A program made the translations under genes and the position numbers. This document shows positions 11,339 to 31,295 of a stretch of 64,000 nucleotides of DNA, one piece after another; within the stretch, counting starts at the first letter, position 1, and each line of letters starts with the position of its first letter. The stretch comes from Afipia sp. (GTDB taxonomy: Bacteria; Pseudomonadota; Alphaproteobacteria; Rhizobiales; Xanthobacteraceae). The DNA lies in the NCBI GenBank assembly GCA_024707075.1, contig JANQAK010000005.1:101362-165361 (forward strand), read 5' to 3'. Below the pieces are notes generated by a model, which saw only the letters and a list, made by a program, of their open reading frames with translations, was not told the DNA's origin and searched no databases.

Positions 11339-11415
11339 CGTCCTCTCCTGGAAGGTGGCCTAAAAACTGGTCCGTTTGTCTACCGGGCTCCGCGTATAGC
11401 GGAGCCGACAATTTC

Positions 11416-13066: not shown

Positions 13067-13375
13067 AAAATTCTCCTGAAAATTAATTGCAAACTCTGGC
13101 GACGCGTGTCCGTAACAGAACCGGTCGATCGGAATAAAAATGCAATGATAGAAAGAGGGGTCAAAAACGTCGCGATTGAAACACTGACGTTAAAGATTTG
13201 CAATCAGCAGTTGCTGTCATAATTATGTGTCAGCCCCGCCATCCCGGAAGGTCGCAGCGGCTATTACTTCCAGCTCGCCTACGGCTTTTCGGAGCTTTCG
13301 GGCGGGGGTCTGGGGCTTGCCCCCAGCGGCGTGTATTCAACAGACGAATGACACCACGCTTTCGTCAGAGACTGA

Positions 13376-14300: not shown

Positions 14301-14345
14301 ATGGATTGCGTGCACCGCTCGTGCAAAGGTATGGCCCTATTCATT

Positions 14346-14837
14346 ATGTCTCGACGCATGTCCAAGAGCGTTTGTTTTACGGTTAGGTGTTGGAAGGTCG
14401 CCGGGTGGTCAACGCTGGCACTGATGACGTTTTCTATGCTGGAGTTGCCGAGGCTTCGCGCGCAGAACGCTTCTAAGGTCAGCACTCTCACTTTCTCAAT
14501 CTGCAATAAGACGTCGAAAACGATAAGTGCAATTATTGTGCGTCGCTCGACATTTGACGAAAACTGGTGGTTGGAGGGCTGGTACGCTGCCGCTCCCAAT
14601 TCGTGCAAAGACGTTAGTGGAATTCCCCGTGGCTATTTCTATTATTATGTGACCCAGGAAGGCACGAATACTATTTGGTCAGGTGATGCGCGCCGCGTGT
14701 GCGTCGATACTAGGGTAGTGGAGAGAGTTATCTTCCCGAAGGAGCAATGTTTAACGGGAGAGACGAATGCGGGATTTGCTGAGGCTTTTAGTCTAAGTGA
14801 TAAGATCGAGTTGCCCTTCATGGATAAGGTCCGCTAG
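14346..14837 (+). CDS. Exported DUF1036-like protein
   Basis: FSICNKT...EGWYAAAPNSC...YYY...WSG...CV pattern. Confidence 0.7.
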   Translation: MSRRMSKSVCFTVRCWKVAGWSTLALMTFSMLELPRLRAQNASKVSTLTFSICNKTSKTISAIIVRRSTFDENWWLEGWYAAAPNSCKDVSGIPRGYFYYYVTQEGTNTIWSGDARRVCVDTRVVERVIFPKEQCLTGETNAGFAEAFSLSDKIELPFMDKVR

Positions 14838-15520
14838 CGGAGATTAATCCAGGCTGGCGGACTTCCGCGACCGAATGGCTCGATGTCTAATTGAGGAGGA
14901 GGAGCAAAGCTTCCGTCGGCACATACCCCGAGGTCACCTTTGACGTTGTAGTCCACGCATGGGTCTCCAAGTACCGAGCTGTCAGCTCTGTCGAGTTTGC
15001 GCTGTTCATCACGTGCAGCCTGACGGGCTAAAATGTAATCGTAACTGGCCAGAACGCCGCCCACTAACAACGCGGTGCCTCCTATGCCCAAAGCCAGCGG
15101 ACACCCCAAACCTGCCGTGCCAACACAGATCTCGGCTGCCGCCCCCATGCCGATCTCAGCTACGCCCCATCCAATAAATGCGCGGCCGCGTGCGTGGGTT
15201 TTATCTTGGCCCTGCCCGCGCCCCTCATCGTAGGTATCGTAGGCATTCCATGCGGCAAAGGCTCCGCCCGTTACTTTTAATGGTATTGTCGGAAGCTTAT
15301 TTCGCTCGGCCAATATTGTTAACGCTGAGATCGATGCTTCGGCAGTTAGTCGGGTCTCCTTTACTGCCATTTCTGATGGAGAGGCGTCGAGAATCTGTAT
15401 CTGACTTTTTTGAGCAGCAGCCTTTACAACGAAGGGCCAGGGTGATCCATCAAAGCCACAGAAGAAAGTCGTGGAGGCGACCGTCGCCGCCCTCAGTATT
15501 CGAAATGAGCAGCTCATCAA
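14834..15520 (-). CDS. Hypothetical protein with Gly-rich hydrophobic hairpin
   Basis: GWGVAEIGMGAAAEICVGTAGLGCPLALGIGGTALLVGGVLA. Confidence 0.6.
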   Translation of the reverse strand: MMSCSFRILRAATVASTTFFCGFDGSPWPFVVKAAAQKSQIQILDASPSEMAVKETRLTAEASISALTILAERNKLPTIPLKVTGGAFAAWNAYDTYDEGRGQGQDKTHARGRAFIGWGVAEIGMGAAAEICVGTAGLGCPLALGIGGTALLVGGVLASYDYILARQAARDEQRKLDRADSSVLGDPCVDYNVKGDLGVCADGSFAPPPQLDIEPFGRGSPPAWINLR

Positions 15521-15548
15521 GATTCCTCACAAGTATGTTCTGCAAAAA

Positions 15549-16373
15549 TCAATAAGAAAAGAAGATGCGCGCTTTCTTTACTTGGCATGAGGGAGCCGGT
15601 GTCGTTTCCAGGAAAGCGAATTCTCTGCCCAACTGATCGTCTTGCAAAATGACGTTATCGACGTTCGAAATACGCACCATTACCCTTGGGATCATGCGCT
15701 CGGCGACCTTCTTTCCCCCGGTAAAGCGGAGTGCGAAAGTTTCGCTTCCTCGATAAGCATCAATGTTTTCCACGCAAGTGGATGACAAATAGTCGTTGAC
15801 AGATTGAACGTAAGCCATCAAAGCCGTCGTGACTATCTTGGCGGCTTTTTCATCTTGCTGTAATGCCAAAATATCTCGGCGCATGCTGTCCTCATCTTTT
15901 TCCAAGAGGATGGCGGTATCTCTTTGTAATTTTGGCCGCTGCCTAAACGTACGCAAGGCAAAGTCCGAATCTTCGGAAATGCGACCTTTTCCCACCACAT
16001 AATTAAGCGCATCTCCATGGGCCAGGTAAACTACTTCCGGGCCACTCTGCTTGTTGGTGCCAATTATCGTAAAGAGATCTATTAGCGTTGAGTAAAGGAC
16101 AATGAACCGTCCGCTAGGGGACTTTTCCACACTTGAGGTGGAGATAATCATCTCTGCTAGGGCGTCGAATCCCATCGCTTGCTTGGCAGTCAGTTCTGAT
16201 GGGGAGACGCCATTCAAGCGCTCGATAGCTTCTGTAATTTTTTGTCTTAGCGCAGGCTGATTTGGAAGTTGACGCAAGATCAGGACTTCGGGAGGTCTGG
16301 TCTCCGCTTCTGCAGCTAGATTTAAAATTACGCTGGTAGTCAGAACCGCCAATAACGAAAGCCATTTCAACAT
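15549..16373 (-). CDS. Exported hypothetical protein (274 aa)
   Basis: Signal peptide MLKWLSLLAVLTTSVILNLAAEA. Confidence 0.7.
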   Translation of the reverse strand: MLKWLSLLAVLTTSVILNLAAEAETRPPEVLILRQLPNQPALRQKITEAIERLNGVSPSELTAKQAMGFDALAEMIISTSSVEKSPSGRFIVLYSTLIDLFTIIGTNKQSGPEVVYLAHGDALNYVVGKGRISEDSDFALRTFRQRPKLQRDTAILLEKDEDSMRRDILALQQDEKAAKIVTTALMAYVQSVNDYLSSTCVENIDAYRGSETFALRFTGGKKVAERMIPRVMVRISNVDNVILQDDQLGREFAFLETTPAPSCQVKKARIFFSY

Positions 16374-16669
16374 TTGGTTCAGCGCCTTTTTTGTTACTAT
16401 GCATGCTAGCTCGCGGCCTGTCCGATTAGAAGTGGTGCTTTGCTGAAGTTTGATGAATTAAGAGGCGCAAGAATACGGTTCGGACAATTGTTAGGCGCTC
16501 TAGCGAGGAACGCAAACGCGAGGGGCCGGACACACCTTTGGCCGGTTTGTCAGACCAACCACATACTTTGTCCGACGCTAAAATCGGTACTCTGAAGGGT
16601 TTCTGCTCGAGGCGTCTTGCGGCGAAATTACCGCGTATCTGAGATCGAAGAAGTCTCGATTAGGTAATT

Positions 16670-16694
16670 GCGCACTTATACATCGCTACGCGAC
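16670..16694 (-). mobile_element. oriT1 (MobQ/IncQ-pTi type)
   Basis: GCGCACTTATACATCGCTACGCGAC; minus strand has the TAAGTGCG^C nick core; TCGC/GCGA repeat; just upstream of relaxase. Confidence 0.75.
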
Positions 16695-16766
16695 AATAGG
16701 TGCACGGCCGACACAGGTGTGTCTAATGGCCGTAAGGTGTCGCAAGCGACAAGGGCAGGGAGGGCG

Positions 16767-17948
16767 ATGGCGTCTTATCATTTCTCGGCACAGGCGGTGA
16801 AACGCTCGGAAGGGCGTTCGGTCGTTGCCATGGCGGCCTATCGTGCTGGCGAGAAACTGAGAGATGAGCGTCGTGGGGTTGATGCTGATTACAGCAGGCG
16901 GCGTGGGGTTGTTCACGCCGAGATCATAGCGCCGGAAGGAAGCGCCGAATGGCTGCTTGACCGCGAGCAATTGTGGAACAGGGTTGAGAAGAGTGAAATC
17001 CGACGCGACGCACAGTTGGCGCGGGAGATCAACATGGCCTTGCCATGTGAGTTGACTGACGAGCAACGGCTTGCCCTGGTTCGGGAGTTTGTTGCTGCTG
17101 AGTTCGTATCGCTGGGGATGGTCGCGGATTTCGCCATCCACGAACCGGTTGCCGAGAAGGGGGACGATCCCCGGAATTTTCATGCGCATGTGCTGTTGAC
17201 CCTGCGCCAGGCGGGCGGCGGTGGGCTCCGCCGCGTAAAGACGCGGGAATGGAATAGCGACGCCATGCTGGCCAAATGGCGGGCCGCCTGGGCCGAACAC
17301 CAGAACAGGGTTCTGCGCGAACGCGGGCTCGCGGTGAAGGTCGATCATCGCAGTCTTGAGGTGCAGAGAGCGGAGGCCGTGGCCCGGCGCGAGCCAGGGC
17401 TGGCCGCTATGCTCGACAGGTTTGCGGAGATTCATGTGGGGCCGAAGGCCCGGAAGGCGGGCTTTGCCGGGACGCCGCAAAGTCGAGAGCGTGAGGCTGG
17501 GCCATTTCGTATACGGGAGATGCCATCTCCGGCCAGGCGCGTGGTTCGCTATCCCGAGTTGGACCAGGGCAGTCGTGGTTATGCGAACATCAAGAGGCTT
17601 AGCTCCAACGGGGAGCGGTTCGCGGCCATGGCGGCGAAGATCGAACGGCAAGCCGAGCGTATGCGCCGTAGGCAGGCTTATTACGAGTCGCTGATTGCGA
17701 AAGAGCGTTCGACCACCCAAGACCGGCAAAAATCATTTAAAGGGCGTCCTGAGCGGTATGAGCACGCCTTGAAGCGGTGCGAGCAGGTGGCGTTCTGGCT
17801 GGCGGAGCTGGATAAGCTTTTTTTCGCAGTATTGGGCATTCGCGAGAGCCAGCTTATGCGGCGCACCGTTTGGCCGAACCGGATGAGGCGGTGGCGGCGT
17901 CTTGATCTTGAGCCGACGCGGGGTGGTGGCCGGAATCGCGCGCGTTGA
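16767..17948 (+). CDS. MobA/MobL (MobQ) relaxase 1
   Basis: MASYHFSAQAVKRSEGRSVVAMAAYR, REINMALPCEL, FAIHEP...NFHAHVLLT, VDHRSL. Confidence 0.9.
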   Translation: MASYHFSAQAVKRSEGRSVVAMAAYRAGEKLRDERRGVDADYSRRRGVVHAEIIAPEGSAEWLLDREQLWNRVEKSEIRRDAQLAREINMALPCELTDEQRLALVREFVAAEFVSLGMVADFAIHEPVAEKGDDPRNFHAHVLLTLRQAGGGGLRRVKTREWNSDAMLAKWRAAWAEHQNRVLRERGLAVKVDHRSLEVQRAEAVARREPGLAAMLDRFAEIHVGPKARKAGFAGTPQSREREAGPFRIREMPSPARRVVRYPELDQGSRGYANIKRLSSNGERFAAMAAKIERQAERMRRRQAYYESLIAKERSTTQDRQKSFKGRPERYEHALKRCEQVAFWLAELDKLFFAVLGIRESQLMRRTVWPNRMRRWRRLDLEPTRGGGRNRAR

Positions 17949-19430
17949 ACTGCAGAGGCCAGCGGTCGTACTTGCCCCACCAGCGGAAATGACGCCACGA
18001 ACGGTAGTTGATTTTGGTGGCAAGCACTGGATACCGCAGCACGTCGCTGCGGTAGAATGCCAGCGCGCGGTTGCCGGGCAGGCGCATCACTTCGGAAGGA
18101 TCAAGAAGCCAGCGGCCGGTCTCCGCTATGCCGAGGGAATACTGCTGTCGCACGAAGTCGGTATTGGCCTGCGAGGTGCCCTGGTTATGGGCAAGGGAGG
18201 TGGTCTGGCCGATCATCTCCGAGATGAACCTGGCTGCTTCGAGGTCGGCGACGTTGAAGAAGACCTTGCAGGTCGCGTTGGCCAGGAATGAACCCGCGCG
18301 TTTGTAAAGCGCGCGAAGCTGGTTCAGGTCCTGAAAGATGAGCATGGGCGTGCAGTAGGCGCGCAAGTAACCGACGCCGCGTTCGAGTGGCTCAAGCGTG
18401 CCGAGCGCGGCGGCTTCGTCGAGCAGGAGCAGGACTTTGTGTTTTGGTCGCGGGCGGTTCTTGGCGCGCGTGAGTGCGTTGAGCACGCAGCCGACCATCA
18501 CGCGGAGGAATCCCGCGTAGATGGAGAGTTTCTCCTCATCGACAACGAGGTACAGCGTCTTGGTCTGGTCAACGAGTGCCGAGAGTTTGAACGTGGAGTG
18601 TGAGGAGATCGTGCCGGCAGGGCTGCCGGCCGACCATACCCGCGTAGCTTTCTCGGTGTTGGACATGACGCTGCGGAATTCCTCGCTGCCCTCCATGGCC
18701 AGGAAGCTGCCCGCCAGTTCGGCGGCTGCGCGCGGGCCATCGCGCGAGATCTGGAGCAGGAGCTCCTTGAACGATTCCGGTGGGAGCGTGGAAAGTGACC
18801 GCAGTTGAGCCAGCGTGCGGCGTTCGAGGTCCAGGCGGACCACGTGCAGGATCAGGCATGTGACCATGCCCTCCGCCTTGCTGTCCCAATGGCTTTCCTT
18901 GCCATCCGGAACGATCATGAGCTTGGCGAGCGCTTCGGCGTCGTCTTTTTCGTGGATGGTATCCACGCGAACCATGTCGAGCGGGTTGAAGCGGTCGGAA
19001 CTATGCGGATCGGTGGTGTCGAGGATACGCACCGGCCCGAACTCGCGGCGGCGACGATGGGTGATCGCACGGTTCTCGCCCTTGATGTCGGTACAGACAA
19101 CGGAGCCGCGATACTCAAGCAGGTTCGGGATGACGATGCCGACGCCTTTGCCCGCGCCCATTGGCGCGAACACGGTCACCATGCCGTCCTTGTTGAAGCG
19201 CAAAAAGAACGGCCTGTGCGGCCGATGATGGGACCATTGCCTCTCCGCACGCCTGACCAGAGCAACTCCCATGGGTTGGCGAAGCGGGCAGAGCCCAAGG
19301 CTCCCCCTGGGTTAAAGCCGCCCCAGCGATACAGCGTGCGCAACAGTGACGCTGTTCTTAGTGTGAGCCAGAAGGCGGTCCGTGCGAGCAACCAAGAGAG
19401 TTTCAACAGAAGCAAGAACGCACGCACCAT
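17854..19430 (-). CDS. VirD4/TraG-type coupling protein 1 (frameshift ~19210)
   Basis: N-terminal TM + GSARFA in ORF 19176-19445; APMGAGKG, TDIKGE, FNPLD, LLLDEAA in 17854-19272. Confidence 0.85.
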
Positions 19431-19625
19431 GCGCGAGTCTTGCACAGGGCGGGGTGAGGCTTAAGCGAATTGCAGACAGCGGGTGGCATTGTTGGGAAAG
19501 CCGGAGGGAAGGGCAGACGTAAGACATCGGAGGGCCGTACCCGCCGCCTGGCCGTCAAGGGTTATGCGAGCGGCTGCGCCGCCCTTGACTGCGGCGGCAG
19601 ATGGCGGCTGTTTGCTGGCCAGCGG

Positions 19626-21368
19626 CTAAGGCCGCACTCTGGACGCGTCCGAAGGCTCAACGGATTGGGCGCGGTGGAAGAATTGCTTGTGCAGCACCAG
19701 CGGTGTTTCGTTCGCGCCGAGCGTGAAGATGCTGTCCCGATGCGCTGGCCCCATGATGTCGGCCGTTTCGATGACCGGACGCTTGGTGCTTTCAAGTACG
19801 CTGTCGGCTTTGCCGAACGCCCGCGCGATGCGGTCCGCGATGGCGGACGGCGGGTTCATGTACATACGCACGTCGCAGTTTTCCATCATGCCGTCGCCGA
19901 CGCCGGGATAGGCGTGGACGATCTGCTCGGCATATTGCGCGAACATCCAGAGCTTGATGCCATAGGAGCGGCCGACCTCCAGTGCTTCGCGAACGGGCTC
20001 CATCCGGCCAAGTCGCGGCAGTTCGTCGAGCATGAACAGGATCGGTGCGGCGGGTTTGGAGTCGCGGCGCATCAACCGGCGTACATGCTGGCCGATGATG
20101 ACGCGCAGGACCGGGGCGTAGGTCTCGATCGCGTTGGGAGGAATGCAGAGATAGAGTGTGGGGCAGGGCGCGGTCGCCAAATCCTCGGGATGCCAATCGG
20201 AGTGCCCGGTGACACGCTCAAGCTTGGGCCCTTCCCATACTTGCAAATGCTGCGAGGCACCGCTGAGCACCCCTTCAAACTGCCTGGGGGCGGCTTTTGC
20301 CATTTGGCCAAAGCGCGCGGCCACGCGCTTCATCGCGGAGGGTAGCGGGCAATCAACATGGCTGACGGTCGCGAACATGTCAGCGAGACCAATGGTTGCG
20401 ACCAGGTCGAGCACTTGCGACATCTTTCTCGCGTCCGCTTCGTTCACGACTACATAGGCAATGATAAGGGTCAGCAGGTCCTTGCCCTGGCTTTCCCAGG
20501 TCGGATCGTGCTGGCTGCGCGTCACGACCAGGAGTTCGGCGAGGAATCGGGCGCTCTCCCACAACTCGTCGGGATGATCATCAACGAAGGCGAGTGGATT
20601 GTAGCTGGCGCTGTGTTCAGGCTCGACGGGGTTGAAGCGGATCACCGGTCCGATGTTCGCGCTGCGCCATGCCGCCGTGTGTTCGTGGCACTCGCCCTTG
20701 ATGTCGAGCACGATCGCGGGTCCACGGTACGACGCCAGCGCAGGCAATACGTGGCATTGGGTCTTGCCCTTGCCGGACGGCGCGATGGTGAGAAGCGAGG
20801 CTTCGCCGACGTAATGGACGGTCTTGCCGTTGGCGGGATTTTGGCCAAGTGGAAGCGCGTAAGGGCCGGGTTCTTCCGAGAACAGCGCTGAGTCCAGTCC
20901 TGTGGGTTTCGGCGGGGTAACGTGGCGGGCCAGCCAGGCCCGCAAGACCGGCGGAGAATCCGCCTGCTGATGTTCGCGGATTTTTTCGCTGATGAGGTTG
21001 GCGTAGGCCGACAGGTTCTTGGGGACGAAGTGTTCGGAGCGGTCGCTGATGAGACCATGCATGACCGCGTGGTCATGACCCGGATAGGTCACGCCGGAAA
21101 ACGCTGCTTTCCCGTCGGCGTAGGTGGCCGACGCGATGAGCTGTTCGGCCGTCGCGCGGTCAATCGAGCCGATACCCGCCAACAGCATGGTGAACTGGAA
21201 AACAAACTTCTCGTACTCGGAAAACTGATACGCGGGGCGGGCGAAGACGTAGGAGCCTTCGTTCAGCTTCCAGCCCGCCTTGACGATGTCGGTCGGCTCC
21301 TGAAACGTCTTCTCGGCAATCACGAGAAAACGCTGCAACGGCTCGTCGAAGGGATGAGGGCTGTCCAT
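19626..21368 (-). CDS. VirD4/TraG-type coupling protein 2 with soluble N-terminal extension
   Basis: APSGKGKT, LDIKGE, YNPL, FMLDELP, GRSYGIKLW. Confidence 0.85.
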   Translation of the reverse strand: MDSPHPFDEPLQRFLVIAEKTFQEPTDIVKAGWKLNEGSYVFARPAYQFSEYEKFVFQFTMLLAGIGSIDRATAEQLIASATYADGKAAFSGVTYPGHDHAVMHGLISDRSEHFVPKNLSAYANLISEKIREHQQADSPPVLRAWLARHVTPPKPTGLDSALFSEEPGPYALPLGQNPANGKTVHYVGEASLLTIAPSGKGKTQCHVLPALASYRGPAIVLDIKGECHEHTAAWRSANIGPVIRFNPVEPEHSASYNPLAFVDDHPDELWESARFLAELLVVTRSQHDPTWESQGKDLLTLIIAYVVVNEADARKMSQVLDLVATIGLADMFATVSHVDCPLPSAMKRVAARFGQMAKAAPRQFEGVLSGASQHLQVWEGPKLERVTGHSDWHPEDLATAPCPTLYLCIPPNAIETYAPVLRVIIGQHVRRLMRRDSKPAAPILFMLDELPRLGRMEPVREALEVGRSYGIKLWMFAQYAEQIVHAYPGVGDGMMENCDVRMYMNPPSAIADRIARAFGKADSVLESTKRPVIETADIMGPAHRDSIFTLGANETPLVLHKQFFHRAQSVEPSDASRVRP

Positions 21369-21373
21369 CGGCG

Positions 21374-22150
21374 TCAGAAGCGATCCATCTGGCGCTGCAC
21401 CACGTGCGCGATAGCCAGCTTCTTCTCGTTGATGAGACGAATGATCTCGGAGCCGCTGGATTGGAAATACCGGGGGCCGTCAAATTGGACGATGTAGACC
21501 TCTCCGGTTTTGAAATTCCATCCGACGATGTGACAGTGGTAAAGGCCGCGCGGGACCTGGACGGTCTGCTTGTCCTGGGTTTCGACCATGGCGGCACCAT
21601 CGGAGATTTCCGCGACGAATTTGGCGGGGAGTACCGGGTCAACCGGCTCAAAGTATTCGATGGCGCTAAGCTGGGGCTCCGAGCCATCGCGGCCAAACGC
21701 GACGGTGAATTCGAAACCGTCCTCTGAGCTGTAATCGCCGTCCTCGAACGGCAGGCCTGCGGGGTTGAGCTGGGTATCGCCCATCAAGGCGACAAAGTCG
21801 GCGAACAGGTGTTCCTCATCCTCCATGTTGCTCATCTGAAGGGACACCGCGCCGTCTTGGTGGGCAAACCCGAAGCGGGGATAATCATAGGTCTGGGCGT
21901 GCCAGCTCACCGACCAGAACTTGCCGGGGTCCACCCGGAGCTCACGAAAACCGTCCCAGGCGCGGATGAAGCCCGCAGGTGAGGTAGTGCGAAAGCGGCG
22001 TGCGCCTTCATCAAGGTATAGCGAACTTCCGGCTTCGACCTTCACGAGGGAAAAGTCGATCCTGGCGGGACTGCCATCGCGGATGTTGAGGGGCTGTAAC
22101 CACGGCAAAACAATTTCAGCCGCCTCCTGGGCGACAATTTCCAAAGCCAT
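21374..22150 (-). CDS. Hypothetical protein, likely co-transcribed with coupling protein 2 (start uncertain)
   Basis: 5-nt gap to the T4CP2 ATG; acidic, aromatic-rich, no recognisable motif. Confidence 0.6.
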   Translation of the reverse strand: MALEIVAQEAAEIVLPWLQPLNIRDGSPARIDFSLVKVEAGSSLYLDEGARRFRTTSPAGFIRAWDGFRELRVDPGKFWSVSWHAQTYDYPRFGFAHQDGAVSLQMSNMEDEEHLFADFVALMGDTQLNPAGLPFEDGDYSSEDGFEFTVAFGRDGSEPQLSAIEYFEPVDPVLPAKFVAEISDGAAMVETQDKQTVQVPRGLYHCHIVGWNFKTGEVYIVQFDGPRYFQSSGSEIIRLINEKKLAIAHVVQRQMDRF

Positions 22151-22359
22151 CGGGGAAAATCCAAAAAGTAAAACCGGGTTGCCAGCATCGAATATCCCGG
22201 CCCGAAACGTCAAGGCTTCCCGCACGACGACCCGGCAGTCAGGAGCTTCGCCCAGACATTCGGCGGGCGGCCGGGCCGCCATCGGACCTGCGTCCCGCTG
22301 GCGTGCCACGGCCGTTCTTGATTCCTGGCGGGATTTGGAGATAGCCTGGCCGGGTCGTT

Positions 22360-22390
22360 AGGGCGCACTTATGGGTTTGCAGGCAAACCC
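22360..22390 (-). mobile_element. oriT2 (RSF1010-like)
   Basis: AGGGCGCACTTA (minus strand TAAGTGCG^CCCT) plus perfect inverted repeat GGGTTTGC-AG-GCAAACCC. Confidence 0.9.
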
Positions 22391-22411
22391 GCGCCCTTCG
22401 GGAGTGCTCGT

Positions 22412-23335
22412 GTGGCGATCTACAGCCTTCACCACAGCCCCGTTGGCAAATCGACCCAGGCGCAGGCTTACACCGCCGCCGCGCATATCAAATACATTAC
22501 CAGGGCGAGAGCATTGAGCCGGGTGGCGGGTGCCCGCATGCCGACCGCTCCCGAAGACGCTATGCGATTCTTGCGGGGAGCCGAAGACACGGACCGGAAG
22601 AATGCGCGGGTGATCGATAAGGTCATGCTGGCCTTGCCGCGCGAGTTGAACGCCAGGCAGCGGGTCGAGCTGGTTCGGGCATATGCCGAGGCGATCACGC
22701 AGGGGCGCGCCTCCTGGCTCGCAGCCTTCCATGAGAAGGGCAAGGATGCCCAGAATCCGCATTGCCATCTGGTCATCCGCGACCGGGATTTTGAAAGCGG
22801 CAAGCGCGTGTTCGGCATGAGCGAAAACGGTTCGACCGAGAAACTGCGGGTGCTGTGGCAGGAATGTGCCAATGCGGCTCTGGTGCAGGCCGACAAGGAG
22901 GCCAGGATCGATCACCGCACGCTTGAGGCGCAGGGCATCGCCCGTGCACCAACCATCCATGAAGGCGTTCGCGGCCGCCGGATGCATCGCGAACGGCGGA
23001 AGGTCTCCTCACGCAAGCGCACGCGGCGTAACGCCGTGTCGGCCAGAAGCCGCAGCCGCGCGGTCGATTACCCGGCGATCGACAAGGGGCGTTCGCGTTG
23101 CGCCTACAATGAGGTTTTGCGGGCGCGCGCCAACGAGACGGCTTCGGATTATTGGCAGGCGCTTGATGCGGACGCGCAGCACAGGGAGATTGAACAGCTC
23201 CGCGCGATTCATAAACCTTCCCCCACGACCGCGGAGGGGCAGCGCGCGGTATTCCGCACGTACATGCGGAAAGCCAAGCCCGCCACTGCAACAAAGCATA
23301 CACGTAGCCGCGACGATGAGCACGAGCCTGAGTAA
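22412..23335 (+). CDS. MobA/MobL (MobQ) relaxase 2
   Basis: MAIYSL, KVMLALPREL, AAFHE...NPHCHLVIRDRD, IDHRTLEAQGI; GGAG RBS. Confidence 0.9.
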   Translation: MAIYSLHHSPVGKSTQAQAYTAAAHIKYITRARALSRVAGARMPTAPEDAMRFLRGAEDTDRKNARVIDKVMLALPRELNARQRVELVRAYAEAITQGRASWLAAFHEKGKDAQNPHCHLVIRDRDFESGKRVFGMSENGSTEKLRVLWQECANAALVQADKEARIDHRTLEAQGIARAPTIHEGVRGRRMHRERRKVSSRKRTRRNAVSARSRSRAVDYPAIDKGRSRCAYNEVLRARANETASDYWQALDADAQHREIEQLRAIHKPSPTTAEGQRAVFRTYMRKAKPATATKHTRSRDDEHEPE

Positions 23336-23703
23336 TGCTTGTCAACCGGGCCAGCTTTACCCATCATGAACTCATGGCTGATGCCTTGCCCACGCTGGAA
23401 GAGAACGTCGATTGGCGGCAGAAGATCGTGGAAACGCTTGCGGCGAAGCACGAGGCCATAGCGGAAATCGACCGCATGGAAGCCATCATTGCAGAAGCCC
23501 AGGTGGAGATAGATGCGATCCGCGAGTACATGCAGCTCAATCCAGATCCCGACACTGAATTATACGGCTTCGACTGGGCAACCCGCCTGATCGAGGATCA
23601 AAAGTTCTATAATGATCGCATTGCGCTCATGCGCCGTTGCATCGAAACGTTTGATAGGTACGTCGCTGCCGTTCAACCATTGGTGGGATCAAATGACGGA
23701 TGA
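23335..23703 (+). CDS. Hypothetical coiled-coil protein
   Basis: Start overlaps the relaxase stop; helical heptad pattern. Confidence 0.55.
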   Translation: MLVNRASFTHHELMADALPTLEENVDWRQKIVETLAAKHEAIAEIDRMEAIIAEAQVEIDAIREYMQLNPDPDTELYGFDWATRLIEDQKFYNDRIALMRRCIETFDRYVAAVQPLVGSNDG

Positions 23704-24106
23704 GGAAGATGCAACGGCCATCAAGATATTCCTGAAGAGCGGCAAGCCCGCAGATGCGCTTGATCTGTTGGCCATAGAGCGCCGTATCGCGGTTTTGGAA
23801 AGGAAAAGGACCGAGCTGGAGTCCAAGTCGCGGCTTATCCCCGGTCGCAGTGCGCACCTTCGACAGGTAAGGGAGGAGATTGCCGCGCTTGGCTGGGCAG
23901 AAATGTCAGCCAAGGAGCAAGTGCGCGCCAATCGTTACCAGTCCGAAATCCATCAAAAAGAAAAGGAGCGGGCGGTATCCGCCTCCAAACTTGCTTCACA
24001 AGAGCGGGAGGCCTTTCAGGCTTTTGTGGCTGCCCGCAAGGCCGAGGCTTCGTCGGACAAGAATGCAATATCAAGAGAATCCGAGTGCGGGAATGAGCCA
24101 GATTGA
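23693..24106 (+). CDS. Hypothetical coiled-coil protein
   Basis: Overlaps upstream gene; charged helical sequence. Confidence 0.55.
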   Translation: MTDEEDATAIKIFLKSGKPADALDLLAIERRIAVLERKRTELESKSRLIPGRSAHLRQVREEIAALGWAEMSAKEQVRANRYQSEIHQKEKERAVSASKLASQEREAFQAFVAARKAEASSDKNAISRESECGNEPD

Positions 24107-24115
24107 ACACTCTCT

Positions 24116-25258
24116 CTAATTGAGTGCCCGGGGCTTAAGCTCCAGTATTCCGCTTGAGAATGTAACGTTGAACCGGGCGAGGAAGGTCATTCCCAGCAGG
24201 CCATCGATCTGGTCGCCGAAGGCAGTTTCTCTGCCGACCGATATGGCCACCGGGACGCTGGTAGCACTTGTTTGGCCGACCTGGATAAGTTGGGCATAGC
24301 CCGGCGCGGATTGCACCGTGCCTCCGACCACTTGGAACGTCATCAGGTTCTGTTCGTCGGGGAGTATGCGCGCGCGGGCTGCCAGCCCGGGTGTGATCGA
24401 AACCATGGAGGCACCGGTATCAACAATCATGCGTGCCTTGACGCCGTTAATCGTTACATCGACGATATTGTTCTGTGTAATCCAGACTTTGTCGCTGCCG
24501 GATGCGTAGCTCGCGCGGCAGTTGCCGTCGTTGGCATATTCCGTGATCATTTTTGTGAGCTGTGGCGTCTGCCGCTTTGTGACATTGTACGAAATGTACA
24601 TCTCAAGCGGCGTGATCGCGTCGCAGTATCGTCCGATTGCCGCATACATGCGTGAGATGCGATAGAACTCGCTTACCGAAACGTTCGATAGATCGGTGAA
24701 GAGCTGGAGAGCGCTGACATAGTCGCTGAGTGCGCCTCGTGGGTTCTTCATTCCTTCATATGCCGTCCCACGCAGATAGCGGTAACGGCTTCGCGCCTGG
24801 TCGAGTTTGATCATCTCGTTGGCGACGGCGACGGCGCTGCTGAAATCATTGATCCGGGTCAGCGCGGCATATGCTTCCTCAAGAAGCTGGCTGTTGTGTC
24901 CGCAGCGCTCACCGAATTTACGTGCGGCGGTCGCTCCATCCCGGGGATACCCAACGCTCACCAGCAGTTTGACGAGCGGCAATATGGCTTCCCTATCGCA
25001 CGGCTCACGCTGGAGTTGGCCAAGAAATTTCGTGCCAGAGGCGCTCTTTTCAACGTCTGCGGTGGATGCGGGCGATAGGCCAAGCTGTTCGTAAACCGAT
25101 TTGAAATCAGGTCGCGAGTTGGCGATGCTCAGCGGGTAAGTTTGGCTAAAATAGATGTAAGCACCCACCGCAATCGCAATAAGCGTGGAGAAGCCTACGG
25201 CAATTGGGACGAAGTAACCTGAGCGTTCCGTGTAGGGCGGTGCAATTCGTTCGGGCAT
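24116..25258 (-). CDS. Membrane-anchored TPR + retropepsin-like aspartic protease
   Basis: N-terminal TM, TPR-like helices, MIVDTGAS, GLLGMTFL. Confidence 0.85.
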   Translation of the reverse strand: MPERIAPPYTERSGYFVPIAVGFSTLIAIAVGAYIYFSQTYPLSIANSRPDFKSVYEQLGLSPASTADVEKSASGTKFLGQLQREPCDREAILPLVKLLVSVGYPRDGATAARKFGERCGHNSQLLEEAYAALTRINDFSSAVAVANEMIKLDQARSRYRYLRGTAYEGMKNPRGALSDYVSALQLFTDLSNVSVSEFYRISRMYAAIGRYCDAITPLEMYISYNVTKRQTPQLTKMITEYANDGNCRASYASGSDKVWITQNNIVDVTINGVKARMIVDTGASMVSITPGLAARARILPDEQNLMTFQVVGGTVQSAPGYAQLIQVGQTSATSVPVAISVGRETAFGDQIDGLLGMTFLARFNVTFSSGILELKPRALN

Positions 25259-25512
25259 GGCAATACCATTGCGACGCCCGGCCTGTGATTACGGCGTCAG
25301 CATTCACATGCCGTTTTAGCGAATATCCTGATTTACGCATGAGAGCTGTAAGCGCAGATTGAAAGCAAACTAACCAATGAGAAGCAGTATTGATTGAATT
25401 GCCTAAGTTCGCGAAATGATTCAACTATCTCGGATAGCGACGGCCTCGATGCGTCTTCGGCGCTTAGACTTGCAAAAATCAGAACATTTGCAACGTTCGT
25501 TGAACGATAGCC

Positions 25513-25775
25513 ATGACCATTCTGGGATACGCTCGTGTTAGCACTGCAACCCAAGAGCTCGATATCCAGCTTGCTCAGTTAAAGCAGGCTGGTTGTTCGA
25601 AGCTATTTTTCGAAAAAGAGAGCGGCATTAAGGATGACCGTCGCGCTCTTAGAGATATGTTGCGCATAATCGAGCCTGGAGACGTTGTTGTCGTTCCTGC
25701 ACTGGATCGATTGACACGAGGTGGTGCTTTCAAAACGCTTCTCATCCTCGACGAAATCACATCGCGCGGTGCGAC
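25513..25775 (+). pseudogene. Truncated serine recombinase (resolvase) N-terminus
   Basis: GYARVST, EKESG, PGDVVVVPALDRLTR; similarity stops at ~25775. Confidence 0.85.
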
Positions 25776-26036
25776 TTGCCGGTCAAACTGCTTTTGCAGC
25801 GTAGGCGCTATTGCTTGATACGCTTCAAGATGTTGGGCAAGCATGCTTGCTGTCTGTGTGGCTTTCGCCACATCCAGCGCCTTATAGGTATCTAAGACTG
25901 AAGATGCAGCTCCTTGAAGTTTCAGGGCCTGCTCGGCGTTGCTGAATATGCCTGCAGCCCTTAAATTCTGCATTTGCTCTGCTACCAAGCGGTGGTTCGA
26001 AAATAGCGGGTCCATAAGCGGATCACGATGCTTCAT
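25776..26036 (-). pseudogene. Probable 5' remnant of an unknown gene joined tail-to-tail to the resolvase remnant
   Basis: Helical 85-aa N-terminus, then the ORF runs antisense through the resolvase. Confidence 0.35.
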
Positions 26037-26279
26037 GTGCGACTTTGCTTTCAGGAAGAATCTGTTAGGAGTTGGTCGCTATCCTATCCTGATCGGCCCC
26101 TATCAGCGATGTATGCAATTTAAATGGCGATCGTCGGGCAATTTTGCAGCCGCTAATCCTAATTTCTTCAATGATTTAGCGGTGTGCGTAGACGCAGGGG
26201 ACATTGCCGCTCGATTTCCGCAGAAATCCGGGGCTTTGAACTAGCACGTTAGTCCTTTGCGGCTATAAGAATAAATTCC

Positions 26280-26313
26280 TCGACCGAAATCCAACCCTGA
26301 CTTATAACCGCGC
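26280..26313 (+). promoter_or_regulatory. Putative sigma70 promoter of the tRNA gene
   Basis: TCGACC-N17-TATAAC then GC-rich discriminator CGCGC, 11 nt before the tRNA. Confidence 0.5.
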
Positions 26314-26324
26314 TGTCCCCCAGT

Positions 26325-26635
26325 GCGGGTGTGGCGAAATTGGTAGACGCAACGGACTTAAACGATCGCTTGATTGCTCGGAGGGAAATCTCCGATGCAG
26401 AACTGCTCAAAGTCGGGGAAACCTTTTAAATGGCAATCCCGAGCCAAGCCCCAACAAGGTTGGGGAAGGTGTAGAGACTAGACGGGCAGCACCTAAGGCA
26501 GTTGAGTTATCTTGCTAGGGTGAAGGGATAGTCCAGACCACAAACGCATTTAAAACGCGGCGGCGAAAGCCGTAGAGGGTAAGAAAATCCGTAGGGCAAT
26601 TGCCTGTCCCGGTTCGAGTCCGGGCGCCCGCACCA
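26325..26635 (+). tRNA. trnL: tRNA-Leu(UAA), intron-containing (exons 26325-26359 and 26584-26635; 87 nt mature)
   Basis: Spliced form: acceptor GCGGGTG/CGCCCGC, anticodon arm ACGGA-CTTAAAA-TCCGT, long variable arm, CCCGG-TTCGAGT-CCGGG, encoded CCA. Confidence 0.95.
26360..26583 (+). ncRNA. Group I intron (trnL/IC3-like, 224 nt, no ORF)
   Basis: Inserted U^AA, ends in G; core elements AAAGTCGGGGAAACC, GGCAATCCCGAGCCAAGC, AGGTGTAGAGACTAGACGG, GAAGGGATAGTCCA; hairpins TCGGAG/CTCCGA, CCCCAAC/GTTGGGG, GCGGC-GAAA-GCCGT. Confidence 0.92.
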
Positions 26636-26654
26636 AATTACAGATTGCAAGAAA

Positions 26655-27671
26655 ATGACCGAAGAGAGGAAAGACAAGCGCCCGATTGACCGCATTCGCG
26701 AGTCGGCAATGAGCATGAGCGTCGGTACGCCCGATGACCAAACACCCATTACGGAGATGATTGGGCTTGGCGGTATTCTCTACATTATAAAGGAGGGCGG
26801 GGTTTATGCGACGCAACTTGCCGATAAAATAGACCCACAGCGAACCAACGCCAGCGTTCCGAATGTTCAGCAGAGGCTCCTTTCGATTGGCTCTAGCTCG
26901 GAATTGGTGGGAAAAACCCTGTTGACGGCCAGAGAACTGCTCAACCCAACATTCCTTCCTGCCGGTTTCGACAAGGAGGCTGGATTAACCTCGGCCCTCT
27001 CTGGCCTCAAGGATCTTGCGGCAATGCAGGATATGGCCGTTAATATCGAGGAAGCACAAAAGAAGGCCGAGGTTCAAGATTATCGTCAGCGCGATCGCTC
27101 GGTGTTGTTGCCATCCGTGGGGGATATTACCGCGCAGACCAAAGCTTTTGCCCAGAAAGCCGACTATGTTCTCCAGTCATTGTTGGGAATAGCCAAGCTG
27201 TTTTATGGAGAGAAGGCAGGGAAGCGCTGGTTCAGATCTCTCGCAGATCTGGCTACGCAACATTACGGTGTTGAAGATGATTTTTCCAAGTTCATGCAGC
27301 AAGCTCTACCGGTGCTGCAGTTCGTAAGGAATGTGCGAAATTGCGTGGAGCACCCAAAGCCAGACCAGTACGTGGTTGCGAGTGACTTTACTTTGAGCCC
27401 GGCTCTTGAACTCGTGCCTCCGACAATCGAGGTTGTTCATCCGAAAACACCGCAGCCGCGCATTCAAGCTTCTGTTTTTATGAGAGATGTCACGGCACAG
27501 CTGGCAGACATCTTTGAGATTATGCTGGCATTTCTTAGTGGAAAGAACGCCCAGCCATTCGCCGGGTTTCCGATCGGCATTATCGTTCTCTTGCCAGAAC
27601 AACGCCGCTCGCCGCATGTGCGCTATTCCTACGGAACTATCATGGGCGACCAAATAAGTCCGATAGGATAG
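26655..27671 (+). CDS. Hypothetical protein with HEPN-like R-x4-H motif
   Basis: VRNVRNCVEHP after a helical region. Confidence 0.55.
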   Translation: MTEERKDKRPIDRIRESAMSMSVGTPDDQTPITEMIGLGGILYIIKEGGVYATQLADKIDPQRTNASVPNVQQRLLSIGSSSELVGKTLLTARELLNPTFLPAGFDKEAGLTSALSGLKDLAAMQDMAVNIEEAQKKAEVQDYRQRDRSVLLPSVGDITAQTKAFAQKADYVLQSLLGIAKLFYGEKAGKRWFRSLADLATQHYGVEDDFSKFMQQALPVLQFVRNVRNCVEHPKPDQYVVASDFTLSPALELVPPTIEVVHPKTPQPRIQASVFMRDVTAQLADIFEIMLAFLSGKNAQPFAGFPIGIIVLLPEQRRSPHVRYSYGTIMGDQISPIG

Positions 27672-27675
27672 AGGC

Positions 27676-29114
27676 GTGACCACCGTGGATAATCCGCCAA
27701 AGCAGTATCTGGGACATTTTTCGATCCAGGGACGGCGGCTTCCTGGTCAAGTTACTCTCGCGGGAAGGGACTCAAAGCTCGAAGTGTTCTCCGATCACCA
27801 TATTCATCTTCCCAAGGAGAAAATGCAGACAATTCGTGGTGTGGCCCGCAGCGGAGAGAAGGTTACGATCTGCAACGCGATCGGTGCAGAGATGAGCGGG
27901 AGCTCCTTTTATTACGGCACTACAAAGCATTTCATTTCGCTATTCCCACACCATGTTGCAATTGGTCCGCGCCATATCGATGCTGAAAGAAAGATAGTTT
28001 CTCGGATTTCATTTACGACCACGGGAGCAATTAATCTCTTCTATGATCACGGCGCATTCGGCAGTTCGTCCAGCAAGAACATTCGCAGATTGATGCCCGA
28101 TTGGGCCAAAAAAGATCGGCGGAAAATCACTTACAATAGAATCTATTATTATGCGGATCGGGGTCCAATCGTTTCTGCCAAGAGCAAGGATTATGAGATT
28201 GTCGTGTTTAATGGGGGTACGTTCAGCTCCCCTTCGCCAAAGGGAATCAACGTAAAGAACGAGGTCCGCATCGCACTAAACTTCAAGAAAGCTGTATCTC
28301 TTGAAGATGCGCTACACGCTGCGCATGAGTTTCGCATTCTCTGTGAATTCTTAAGCCATGCAAAACAGTGTATTCAAAATGTCCGCATCCAACATAAGAA
28401 TTCAGAACAACAAGAGGGAGAGATCACTCTCCACTCTTCCTACGAGAATCGGGTTCTGGCCAAGAGGCCGACTTTCGCGACAACCTGATCTCAGGTGGGT
28501 TCCACAGGGGTGAGTTCAAGCAAGTTATAGAGCGTTGGTTAGCAAAGCCAACTCATGCAAGCGCGCGGCAGCGTGTCATCCAAAATATGCGCGAAGAAAT
28601 CTATACGATTGATCGGCTTGTTGGCGCGGCTAACGCATTTGATATTTTGCCAGAGGTCAATGTTGCAAAGCCGCTGCCTGCTCGCGCGATGAAAATCCTC
28701 AGCAAGCTGAGGAAGGATGCGAAGAACCTACCCGCGCCTTATAATGAGCAGATTCTAAATAGCTTAGGCCGAGTAAAGGCGCAGACTCTTCGTAAGAAGA
28801 TTGAGGCCCATTTCTCTTCGCTTCCGCATCCTCTAAAACAGCGTCTTCCAGACATGTTGCTTGTCATCGAGCATTGTGTTCGGGCACGCAATTATTTCGT
28901 TCACGGTACGCCACCCAAGATATCGGTGGACGCCACTCATCAGCAGATTTTCTTTCTAACCGACACACTCGAGTTTATTTTTGTCATCTCAGAACTCGCG
29001 AAATGCGGCTGGAAGTATGATCGTTGGATAAAAGAACCTGGGTGGGGACGCTATCGGCAATATTTACAATCCTACGAGCTCTCGCTCCGTGCTTTTAAGG
29101 AGCTTATCCCGTAA
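27676..29114 (+). CDS. ApeA-like HEPN protein (frameshift ~28450)
   Basis: Beta-rich N-terminus; one added base joins both ORFs into 480 codons; DRLVGAANAFDILP and RARNYFVHG (R-x4-H). Confidence 0.7.
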
Positions 29115-29128
29115 CTTTGTCATTAGAA

Positions 29129-29985
29129 CTAGCCTGCATTAAGCGTGCGGGTCGGCTGTAGAGGCCACGTAGCTAAAGCCTCTCTTACCTGCTGAGCATT
29201 GGCAAACAGATGTGGATTTGCAATGAATTGCGTAACAGATGCAAATTCACCAGGCTGGTAAAATCTTTCGCGCACGAATCCAAGAAAGTGCACTCTTTCT
29301 CGGGCGTGGGGCGCACCTCTCATGGGGTTATTCAAGTCAAATACCCCTGCAATGAGGCGTCCCGCCCAATAGCGTCGTAGAAAAGCATCGGGAAGCCATG
29401 CTCCCCCTAATCCTACGTGAATTCGATCATACTCATCTCCCCCATGCAGGAATGTTCGAAAATCGATTAATAACGCATGTAGCGCCCCGTTCGGCCGGGG
29501 AAATTTATACGGCAAGCCGTCTTTCTCGCATTTCTGACATATCCTTTGTACAGCTTTGATAGTTTCGCCCTCTTCGGATCGCGTAGGGTCTTCGGCATTG
29601 GTTGTGAGAATGCGTTGAGACCAAACAATTCCGTCTTCATCAGCATGCGCGGTCGTCGCGGCGCGCGCAGCTGCGGTTTCTTCGAGGCGCATCAGCTCGA
29701 CACGCCAATCTCTACCGGCGGAATTGAAGCCAAAGTCTAGATTGGATTGTCCTTCTCCTTGAATTTCATAAGCCGGAGCAATTCCGGCATTATGCAATTC
29801 ATGAGCAAACCGTAATTCTAGCAGGCGAGATTTATTCTCTCTGCTAATGCCACCGTTTTCTTCAACTCCACGAACAAGGGAGCCGCCCATTGATGAGGAC
29901 GCAGCACATTTAGCAGCGGAGCGGTCGCATCTGCTTCTTCTCCGCTAAGATAATCCCAATCAATTGCGTGGACTCCATTTGGCAT
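29129..29985 (-). CDS. Hypothetical protein, possible restriction-endonuclease-like fold (frameshift ~29885)
   Basis: LLELRFAHEL...LDFGF...WRVE; N-terminus MPNGVHAIDW in the adjacent frame; start 10 nt after the Fic stop. Confidence 0.5.
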
Positions 29986-29995
29986 GGGAATATCG

Positions 29996-30579
29996 CTAGC
30001 CCCGTCTTTCAATTATTAGCTCTAGAATCAACTTAACTAGAGGCTTCTCATTCCCACCAAAGCTGGCAATCACCGCCTGCATAATAGCCTCGGGCTTCAT
30101 CTTCTTCAGGTCGATAGGATGCCCGGCTTTCTCGGCCAGTAAAATGTAGAAGCTCAGCTGGCTACGGCCGTTGCCTTCCCGGAAGGGGTGGATGGCGTTG
30201 AGGTCGGCCAGGAAATGCGCCGCTGCCTCTGAGAATTTCTGCGGCGTGAGTCCGTTAAAGTACTTTGCCTCCACCAATTGCTTGAACAGCTTCTTTGCCT
30301 CGCGATCGATGCTCTCCGGATAGCAGAACATGCTGCCGCCCTTGGCAATGCGCACCGTGCGGGGCTTGCCAGCCCAAGTGTAGACGTCCTGAAACAGGTG
30401 TTTATGGATGGCGCAATAGTGAGAGTAGGTCAGCTTCCCGGCGGGAGGGGCTCGGTCGAACGCTGGAATGAGATTTCAGCCTCGAACTTATCGAGATCAG
30501 CTTGTTTCCTGAGTCCGAGCTTATTTTTGAGAACAGACGTTCCTGGGTAGCAGTACGGGTCATCAATGGCCTCGTACAT
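29996..30579 (-). CDS. Fic-domain toxin (FicT-like; frameshift ~30445)
   Basis: DPYCYPGTSVLKNKLG, IHKHLFQDVYTWAG, HPFREGNGRSQL. Confidence 0.9.
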
Positions 30580-30588
30580 GCTCAATCA

Positions 30589-30792
30589 TCAAGCTTTCTT
30601 GTAAGTTTTGATAATCTCTTTGCGACGTTGAGCAGGAGACAATCCCTCACGATCGAAACGATCGCTACGCTTTTTCATTTCAGCGGTAAGCTTGATACCT
30701 TCAACCGCACTGATCTGCGTAAAGCGTTCCCTGCCAATCACGAACTTGGCGGAAATGCGCTTATTCGCGCCGGATTTCTTAAGAGGAGCCAT
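30589..30792 (-). CDS. Putative FicA/VbhA-like antitoxin (67 aa)
   Basis: Small gene directly upstream of Fic, with ISAVEGI helix. Confidence 0.65.
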   Translation of the reverse strand: MAPLKKSGANKRISAKFVIGRERFTQISAVEGIKLTAEMKKRSDRFDREGLSPAQRRKEIIKTYKKA

Positions 30793-31237
30793 ATCCAGAT
30801 AATACCAGAATCTGCAAGAATTTCCAGTTAAGAGGTAACGGAGCTTGAAGTCGGTGTGGCACTAAAGCTTGACCTAGATAGGTCCTCGACTCATATGGAT
30901 ACATCGCTCCTTCGAGCGGTTATGTACGAAAAGGACCGCAGTAACGGCCCCTTTTGTTTAGCAGGCCAAGCCCTCAAGACTCTGTTAGAGAAGTCCGGCT
31001 AGATTCAGGATGAGCTTCGGCATTGCTTCGCCTTCGCTGCGACAGTAACGACACTCAGACCCAGTTGGGTGCGTAGTCAAGGCCCGGTGCCCACCGCCAG
31101 CCCCGTTGTATGATGTTCAGCACATTCGGGAGGCAAAAAAGAGCAGAAATCGTCATTTTCTAGCATCGATTTTAGCACGCTGAGTTTTTAATATGAAAAT
31201 TCATCAATGAAATCAAATAGTTTAAGTAGACCAGTTA

Positions 31238-31295
31238 GGACTTAAAATCCCTCGATGGCAACGTCGTGCGGGTTCGATTCCCGCCGTCCGCACCA
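31238..31295 (+). mobile_element. attR-like site: 3' half of tRNA-Leu(UAA)
   Basis: GGACTTAAAATCC, variable arm CGATG-GCAA-CGTCG, GCGGG-TTCGATT-CCCGC, CCA; no D-arm or 5' acceptor upstream; AT-rich flank with paired TAGCA repeats (31161, 31173). Confidence 0.85.

Follow-up and report, generated by a model that had tools for sequence, protein, structure and literature searches.

Intron-bearing replacement tRNA genes in an Afipia island that splits the host tRNA-Leu(UAA) gene: a group I intron as a possible shield against the integrase

Why should a transfer RNA (tRNA) gene carried by a mobile island be interrupted by a group I intron at the very bases on which the integrase of the island acts? 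The question arises from a 64,000-nucleotide (nt) stretch of an Afipia sp. genome, referred to here as the window (C4:101362-165361 in a 7-contig, 5.3-Mb assembly that is 99.7% complete), which holds a tRNA-Leu(UAA) gene with an insert in its anticodon loop and, further to the right, the displaced 3' half of another tRNA gene. An earlier note, drawn up from the letters of the window, had proposed that the insert makes the island's copy of the tRNA gene immune to the integrase at the DNA level, and that this copy is a spare for the tRNA that the island targets. In the explanation which we favour, and regard as probable though well short of secure, the island has split the host gene, carries intron-bearing tRNA genes that replace it and uses the intron as a shield. 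The first of these parts is the firmest: an insertion of 36.1 kb cut the single tRNA-Leu(UAA) gene of the host in two, duplicating GGACTTAAAATC. Coordinates of the features in and around the window are collected in Table 1.

The split host gene and the crossover site

The fragment at the right end of the island begins with GGACTTAAAATCC (31238-31250) and, as the earlier note had read, these same 13 bp are found in the island tRNA only post-splicing, the 3' halves of the fragment and of the island tRNA diverging beyond them. The two are indeed not halves of one gene, the true 5' partner of the fragment (GCGGACG...AGGGA) lying 36 kb to its left at C4:96417-96466, 4.9 kb left of the window, where GCGGACGTGGCGGAACTGGTAGACGCAAGGGACTTAAAATC is followed by AT-rich, non-tRNA DNA. 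The GCGGACG acceptor and the AGGGA anticodon stem of this left half pair perfectly with TCCCT...CGTCCGC of the fragment; the previous argument that TCCCT cannot pair with the ACGGA of the island tRNA was overstated, as four of the five pairs form with a single C-C mismatch. Rejoining the halves at the left and right attachment sites (attL and attR) gives a tRNA-Leu(taa) fold with ARAGORN, which finds no tRNA at attL alone, and attR holds the 3' half only. Four sister Afipia genomes (G015, G017, G022 and G024) have an intact, intronless gene of 87 nt between the same flanks at this locus, and the fragment (31238-31295) agrees at every base (100%) with the intact gene's 3' half in 10 or more sister genomes. 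In G015 the matches to the left and right flanks have exactly the 12 bp of the core in common; from this overlap and the empty sites of the sister genomes it follows that the 36.1-kb insertion split the gene. The 12-mer GGACTTAAAATC itself occurs three times in the 5.3-Mb genome, on every occasion at an island junction, with about 0.6 occurrences expected by chance.

At the left junction an intact tRNA-Leu gene with a GCGGACG acceptor, together with an integrase gene, had been anticipated. A tRNA-Leu(UAA) with this acceptor is present and the integrase gene follows directly, but the host gene is represented by its 5' half rather than being intact. The host gene was split without rebuilding because the attachment site of the element (attP) shares only GGACTTAAAATC with its target; beyond the 12-bp core attL runs into an AT-rich arm (gcaaattaag...) without a T-arm, and the tRNA restoration of classical islands does not occur. 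The left 4.9 kb of the island, outside the window, comprises attL, the integrase gene (C4:96603-97811) and the first intron-bearing tRNA gene, copy 1 (C4:97917-98211); the integrase, of 402 amino acids, begins 137 bp past attL and copy 1 lies 105 bp further on. Excision would restore the predicted bacterial attachment site (attB) GCAAGGGACTTAAAATCCCTCG. The attP junction TAGGACTTAAAATCGCA, taken as a sign of the excised circle, gave 37 matches in metagenomes, none with the integrase nearby and hence attributed to chance, and none among viral contigs.

The integrase is assigned to the tyrosine recombinases by PHROG_1 'integrase' (E 5.8e-28), while its Pfam score (PF00589, 18.6 bits) falls under the cut-off of 27.1; NCBIfam returned no match to it and a sequence search of the PDB nothing useful. 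Across 82 sequences R240, K272, R336, H337 and Y368 are invariant, with the first His position occupied by an invariant Tyr (Y333). The weak Pfam score and the lack of an NCBIfam match mark it as a divergent branch of the tyrosine recombinases. Arm-type repeats lie on both sides of the core (Table 1).

The position of the crossover can be judged from a second island in the same genome, 37.7 kb in length and on the minus strand of contig C5 (C5:57936-20236; loci L022-L024), the integrase of which is about 97% identical to that of the C4 island. It sits in a gene for a P1B-type metal ATPase, the flanks of which, when joined, restore one frame (...WIYKGL/AILLIGCPC...DKTGT, the slash marking the junction); this frame stops about 95 codons past the junction, and the gene is probably decaying. 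The C5 target reads AAGGGA-CTTgccA-TCCtc, with AAGGGACTTAAAATCgca at attL and ctaGGACTTgccatcc at attR. It keeps GGA-N7-TCC, spaced as in an anticodon stem-loop, despite changes at four of the seven loop positions. Because the C5 attL and attR switch between host and element sequence there, the crossover is placed within GGACTT; in the host gene it thus falls in the anticodon stem-loop, which supports the earlier note on this point. The conserved arms suggest that the integrase needs both stem-like halves. The C5 island chose the ATPase site though attL, attR and four intron-bearing tRNA genes elsewhere in the cell hold more of the core. With the attR junctions of genomes G005 (cta/GGACTT) and G002 (taa/GACTT) and the attL of at least 30 relatives (AAAA/gc...), the minimal core of the family is GACTTAAAA, and in every case the intron insertion point, CTT^AAAA, falls within it.

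Replacement tRNA-Leu(UAA) genes and their intron

ARAGORN finds tRNA-Leu genes for the anticodons CAA, GAG, TAG and CAG in the genome, and no intronless tRNA-Leu(UAA) in the assembly. A further call of 78 nt at C1:533430-533507, 'tRNA-Leu(caa)', lacks the D-arm and the long variable arm of a tRNA-Leu and is probably false. Intron-bearing tRNA genes were located by Rfam and BLAST, and BLAST finds four for tRNA-Leu(UAA), two on the C4 island and two on the related C5 island. The island copies are the only tRNA-Leu(UAA) genes of the genome, and what had been described as a spare copy of the target is on this count better read as a replacement. UUA codons are in use (0.54 per 1000 codons, in 166 of 599 long open reading frames); with no other tRNA-Leu(UAA), the cell is predicted to read them through the spliced island tRNAs, for which self-splicing would be required.

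Without its intron mode ARAGORN finds no tRNA in the window. Rfam assigns the insert of copy 2, the tRNA gene of the window, to the group I introns (RF00028, match span 26350-26555, E 1.4e-11); it reaches 56.2 bits, the cut-off being 50, and the three other intron copies of the genome score 41.5-53.3 bits. Deletion of the insert in silico leaves an 87-nt tRNA-Leu(UAA) with a canonical ARAGORN fold. The splice sites read CTT^AAAC...TAAG^AAAATCC, with insertion at U34^A35 and a G as the last base of the intron; U-1 lies in the G-U pair of the P1 helix, which the guide, TTGA(G/T)T, forms with ACTT^AA. In an alignment of 20 sequences double compensatory changes are seen in 30 of 68 predicted pairs, which argues that the structure of the intron is under selection. 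The proposal that the intron lies inside the integration core is borne out, all four introns being inserted at U34^A35 within the 12-bp core GGACTT^AAAATC; in copy 2 the core bases GGACTT (26354-26359) and AAAATCC (26584-26590) are split by the 224-nt insert.

Copies 1 and 2 of the C4 island share only 80% identity, and the G+C content is about 0.50 over positions 25000-31500 of the window, compared with 61% for the whole genome. Taken together, these values indicate that the right end of the island is probably an older, accreted element. Partial copies of the tRNA gene also occur. A degenerate one, with the 3' part of the intron and the full 3' exon, lies at C5:51635-51452, 4.5 kb from the first tRNA copy of the C5 island, and similar ones are found in genome G005 (C5:480358 and C5:481960); such fragments begin inside the intron and not at the splice site.

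The integrase family and the role of the intron

Relatives of the integrase number at least 318 in genome contigs, of which the best 80 loci were surveyed; they span Alphaproteobacteria, Acidobacteriota, Planctomycetota and Verrucomicrobiota. One branch has the integrase after an intact tRNA-Met or tRNA-Arg, in the classical arrangement, while the Leu branch follows the order core, about 140 bp, integrase, 50-100 bp and complete tRNA-Leu. The core or the cut host half precedes the integrase by about 140 bp in 51 of 51 Leu-core loci, 33 of them with a host half cut in the loop (one further Leu locus, without upstream sequence, stands outside the 51). A complete tRNA-Leu follows the integrase in 47 of the 51; two have no tRNA there, and two same-clade relatives (L037 and L072) retain the classical arrangement and rebuild the host tRNA. 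The intron is present in 19 of 22 UAA-type elements, both islands of this genome included, the other three being intronless with a different stem. Among CAA-type elements three have a homologous intron, 13 have T32 (host C32) and nine have an unchanged loop. The homologous intron is inserted at U33^C34, one base upstream of the UAA-type site and still within the core (L036:5278-5581, L080:5415-5735 and L093:5431-5747). On the integrase tree the state of UAA plus intron requires at least five changes, and the UAA-type elements with the intron fall into at least five integrase lineages.

Tyrosine recombinases act through two subunits which bind half-sites 6-8 bp apart. When the island inserted, its integrase recombined the short attP core with the only tRNA-Leu(UAA) gene that the host had, at the anticodon stem-loop. 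In the tRNA gene of the island itself the intron puts 224 bp between the right half-site (TCC...) and the left one with the crossover bases, and in the mechanism proposed here this would leave the gene unable to serve as a second attB. Such masking would prevent recombination between attP and the tRNA gene, which lie in direct orientation and 1.4 kb apart and would otherwise delete the integrase gene between them, and it would also stop sibling elements from targeting the tRNA copy, while after splicing the RNA would again be a normal tRNA. An element that carries a whole tRNA, in place of a 3' half, would have no need to match the acceptor stem of each host, a freedom which fits the spread of the family over several phyla.

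The case for shielding draws on the required spacing of the half-sites and on the site choice of the C5 island. At the DNA level the four island copies read GGA-CTTAAAC-TAT, GGA-CTTAAGC-CAT, GGA-CTTAAAC-GAT and GGA-CTTAAGC-GTA, keeping the left arm and CTTAA, with the right arm 224 bp away. On this geometry the intron-bearing site is likely to be physically inert to the integrase. That shielding is the function for which the intron was selected, a further step argued from the same geometry, we put at scarcely an even chance. Immunity to the integrase is thus a plausible proposal: it fits the geometry of the site, the choice of a secondary site and the pattern in the family, and is weakened by relatives that lack an intron and keep the loop unchanged.

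These relatives head the observations that weigh against shielding. About 12 of some 48 Leu-type elements (L038, L042, L045, L056, L057, L070, L076, L096 and others) have a tRNA without an intron and with a 7-nt loop equal to the core, which indicates that a loop shield is not obligatory in the family. The intron-bearing copies, moreover, keep GGACTTAA(A/G), including CTT, seemingly the most important bases. In copy 2 the guide (26370-26376) reads TTGATT as opposed to TTGAGT in 19 relatives, giving a C-T mismatch at P1 position -3, and the window copy may splice more poorly than copy 1. The constant GCGGGCG acceptor suggests that a cassette of one lineage was swapped among elements, not regained each time, and the five lineages with the intron may then not represent five independent gains. 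T32 was considered as a second type of shield in CAA-type elements. It occurs in the tRNA-Leu(CAA) of 59 of 301 alphaproteobacterial genomes and lay beside the integrase in 0 of 30 sampled loci; being common in cellular genes, it is weakened as a candidate. In Acidocella sp. KAb 2-4 a 15-kb island of the same family (L179/L185, G361 C1:67831-82872) has a shared core of about 29 bp, and its tRNA-Leu(CAA) shows just two differences from the host gene as rebuilt from attL and attR, namely C32T in the core and one base of the variable loop, a case which is suggestive only.

Several of these points serve the main rival, according to which the host tRNA was split and replaced as described, but the intron is an inherited or selfish part of a captured cassette that hitchhikes without any protective role. 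We find this doubtful, without its being far-fetched. Besides the intronless replacement tRNAs with unchanged loops and the conserved acceptor stem, which suggests a single origin of the cassette, it can appeal to intron-bearing tRNA genes found away from integrases, namely copy 2 of the window, one in Afipia G025, one on a Bradyrhizobium plasmid and those beside aac(3)-IId in 1272 plasmid records; among about 19 sampled alphaproteobacterial intron-bearing tRNA-Leu(UAA) genes the integrase lies within 1.5 kb of only about five. A passenger is harder to reconcile with the retention of the intron in 19 of the 22 UAA-type elements, in hosts of several phyla, with a homologous intron in CAA-type elements that occupies another position yet still falls in the core, and with the established mechanism of recombination, under which two integrase subunits 6-8 bp apart could not bind a split core.

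A role at the RNA level, in which the intron times or limits the supply of tRNA-Leu(UAA) or keeps precursors from anticodon nucleases, appears very unlikely. Genes of the HEPN family (ApeA-like) do begin 20 nt past the tRNA, and phage tRNAs have been proposed as a counter to anticodon nucleases (discussion in PMC10865867). Yet the HEPN genes here are broken, in the C5 island the tRNA has the HEPN module on its opposite side, copy 1 in its conserved position by the integrase has no HEPN neighbour, and the mature tRNA does not differ from an ordinary one. The arrangement within the window also invites a simpler reading as a classical island of 4.6 kb, bounded by 26325-26635 and 31238 as attL and attR, with a tRNA rebuilt by joining the 5' part of the host gene to a 3' part from the element. 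In its favour, a 3' fragment lies 4.6 kb beyond an intact tRNA and points the same way, the G+C content of the segment is low, and the acceptor GCGGGTG could pair with CGTCCGC by means of two G-U pairs. The chance of this being right is negligible: the exact 5' partner of the fragment is flanked by host DNA 36 kb further left, joining the two halves yields the gene of the sister species, the DNA left of the intron-bearing tRNA is that of the island, with its relaxase, coupling proteins and resolvase remnant, and the same tRNA, 90% identical to window copy 2, occurs inside the C5 island. Empty-site alignment with the sister genomes refutes the 4.6-kb island.

Island cargo, related systems and implications

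Besides the genes listed in Table 1, the island encodes an OLD-family nuclease, a restriction-modification set made up of an Eco57I-like methylase and a XhoI-type endonuclease, a Tle1-like lipase and a PLD protein. Phage structural genes were not found among the island open reading frames scanned and, given this and the relaxase and coupling proteins, the element is classed from its gene content as an integrative mobilisable island and not a temperate phage. The ApeA-like HEPN (27676-29114) and Fic (29996-30580) genes are both broken by frameshifts or stops, and the right end of the island looks degraded. A 2.5-kb module composed of a 338-amino-acid gene of no known function and the ApeA-HEPN gene (26635-29176) is 95% identical to C5:26401-23860; in the window it begins exactly at the CCA end of the tRNA, and in the C5 island its place is upstream of the corresponding tRNA gene. 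The 3' end of the tRNA may be a recombination hot spot for cargo.

Table 1. Positions of the tRNA, attachment-site and cargo features (window coordinates, unless a contig is given)
Feature	Position	Strand	Evidence or remark
Island portion within the window	1..31237	+	Whole island C4:96467-132598, 36.1 kb; direct repeat at ends, empty sites
Displaced 3' half of the host intronless tRNA-Leu(UAA), position 29 to CCA	31238..31295	+	58 nt; sister-genome identity, refolding
attR copy of the 12-bp core GGACTTAAAATC	31238..31249	+	Second copy is attL, C4:96455-96466
5' exon of island tRNA-Leu(UAA) copy 2	26325..26359	+	3' end ...ACGGACTT (U34)
Group I intron, 224 nt, at U34^A35	26360..26583	+	RF00028 match; compensatory changes
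3' exon of island tRNA-Leu(UAA) copy 2	26584..26635	+	AAAATCCGT...CGCCCGCACCA
Two arm-type repeats TAGCA(T/C), P arm	31161..31179	+	Background 0.22 per kb on contig C4
Three more arm-type repeats TAGCA(C/T), P' arm	C4:96544-96570		Places repeats on both sides of the core
Two type IV coupling proteins, VirD4/TraG family	17854..21368	-	PF02534, E 2.6e-68 and 4.5e-50
MobA/MobL relaxase	22412..23335	+	PF03389, E 1.6e-24
Truncated serine recombinase, resolvase N-terminal domain only, just 5' of tRNA copy 2	25513..25818	+	PF00239, E 1.2e-19
ApeA-like HEPN gene in two open reading frames (27676-28488, 28587-29114)	27676..29114	+	PF18862, PF18739
Fic/Doc-family gene, N-terminal part out of frame; small upstream partner open reading frame 30589-30792	29996..30792	-	PF02661, E 2.9e-10

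An intron that removes a DNA target is familiar from homing endonucleases, where the intron splits the recognition site and the intron-plus allele is no longer a substrate. Here, by contrast, the enzyme is a site-specific integrase that belongs to another mobile element, and no endonuclease is encoded in the intron. A hypothesis of Randau and Soll holds that disrupted archaeal tRNA genes, intron-containing or split, resist the integration of mobile elements; in this idea, as summarised in PMC4390854, an anticodon-loop intron likewise removes the DNA recombination target while the RNA stays functional. The hypothesis concerns hosts that guard their genes by means of protein-spliced archaeal introns, whereas the present element would guard its own cargo tRNA from its own integrase by means of a self-splicing group I intron. 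As in classical tRNA-targeting islands of the Islander type with an anticodon-loop crossover (PMC4383910), a displaced tRNA fragment marks one end of the island; there, attP holds the 3' part of the tRNA and the target is regenerated, whereas the Afipia island does not rebuild its target and brings a whole gene of its own.

The closest parallel is the tRNA-dependent lysogeny of actinobacteriophages (Fionnbharth, Cluster L and Gaia; Guerrero-Bustamante and Hatfull, 2024, PMC10865867), of which, judged by its gene order and junctions, the C4 island would be the island counterpart. Both systems have a tyrosine integrase and an attB within a tRNA gene, and in both the element supplies the tRNA, here as two tRNA-Leu(UAA) genes per island. 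The common core of the phages, about 8-12 bp, leaves the host tRNA not rebuilt, as does the 12-bp core of the island, and what their secondary sites conserve is above all the 5'-CTT on the left side of the core, a feature shared by the C5 site. Unlike the phages, the present element is a mobilisable island with relaxase, coupling proteins and defence cargo, its relatives inhabit Alphaproteobacteria, Acidobacteriota, Planctomycetota and Verrucomicrobiota, and a group I intron lies inside the core of the replacement tRNA. How the element's own tRNA evades the integrase is not asked in PMC10865867. The introns themselves correspond to the tRNA-Leu(UAA) class 'Leu.3Ug', known from Proteobacteria as well as Cyanobacteria (Williams, 2020; bioRxiv 10.1101/2020.01.27.920355), with which they share insertion at CUU/AAAA, U-1, a terminal G, a length of about 200-250 nt and the absence of a reading frame; the Williams catalogue draws no link to integrases, split host genes or att cores. 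Full-text literature searches found no publication on an intron-in-core design or on a tRNA group I intron tied to an integrase core.

Related tRNA genes were also met on plasmids. In pCTX-M3 (L117, NC_004464.2) positions 5834-6301 hold a homologous, apparently intact intron-bearing tRNA-Leu(UAA), of about 70% identity, where no feature is annotated. It adjoins aac(3)-IId and a tmrB-like ATPase gene, and the arrangement recurs in the 1272 conjugative-plasmid records, from Escherichia, Klebsiella, Salmonella, Acinetobacter and others. Upstream of it lie ...ccagcGGACTTAAAAAgtc and a 150-bp arm, 84% identical to the left end of a tRNA-Leu(UAA)-splitting island in Afipia G025, and an island of this kind seems to have its left end within this widespread resistance segment. 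The plasmid of Bradyrhizobium sp. ISRA443 (L118, NZ_CP094524.1), which is conjugative and of 317 kb, has at 5722-6290 a C-terminal integrase remnant followed by an intron-bearing tRNA-Leu(UAA), beside trb genes.

In its widest form the proposal is that widespread tRNA-replacing elements have co-opted the intron as a DNA-level mask against their own and sibling integrases, that they also spread tRNA-Leu introns among Proteobacteria, Acidobacteriota and other phyla and left fragments on clinical resistance plasmids, and that cells depend on the ribozyme for UUA; we advance it tentatively, as falling a little short of an even chance. If true, it would give a concrete function, the masking of a recombination site, to a bacterial group I intron, a kind of element usually deemed selfish or neutral. 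Integration dependent on a tRNA, described in 2024 only for actinobacteriophages, would come to include mobilisable defence islands from four phyla or more. The proposal further supplies a means by which tRNA-Leu introns could have spread horizontally and patchily outside Cyanobacteria, and implies an addiction of the host to an element-borne, ribozyme-dependent tRNA. A minimal att core combined with a self-contained, masked tRNA suggests a route to broad host range that would be usable for integration vectors, and the shielding idea is open to direct test by simple recombination assays.

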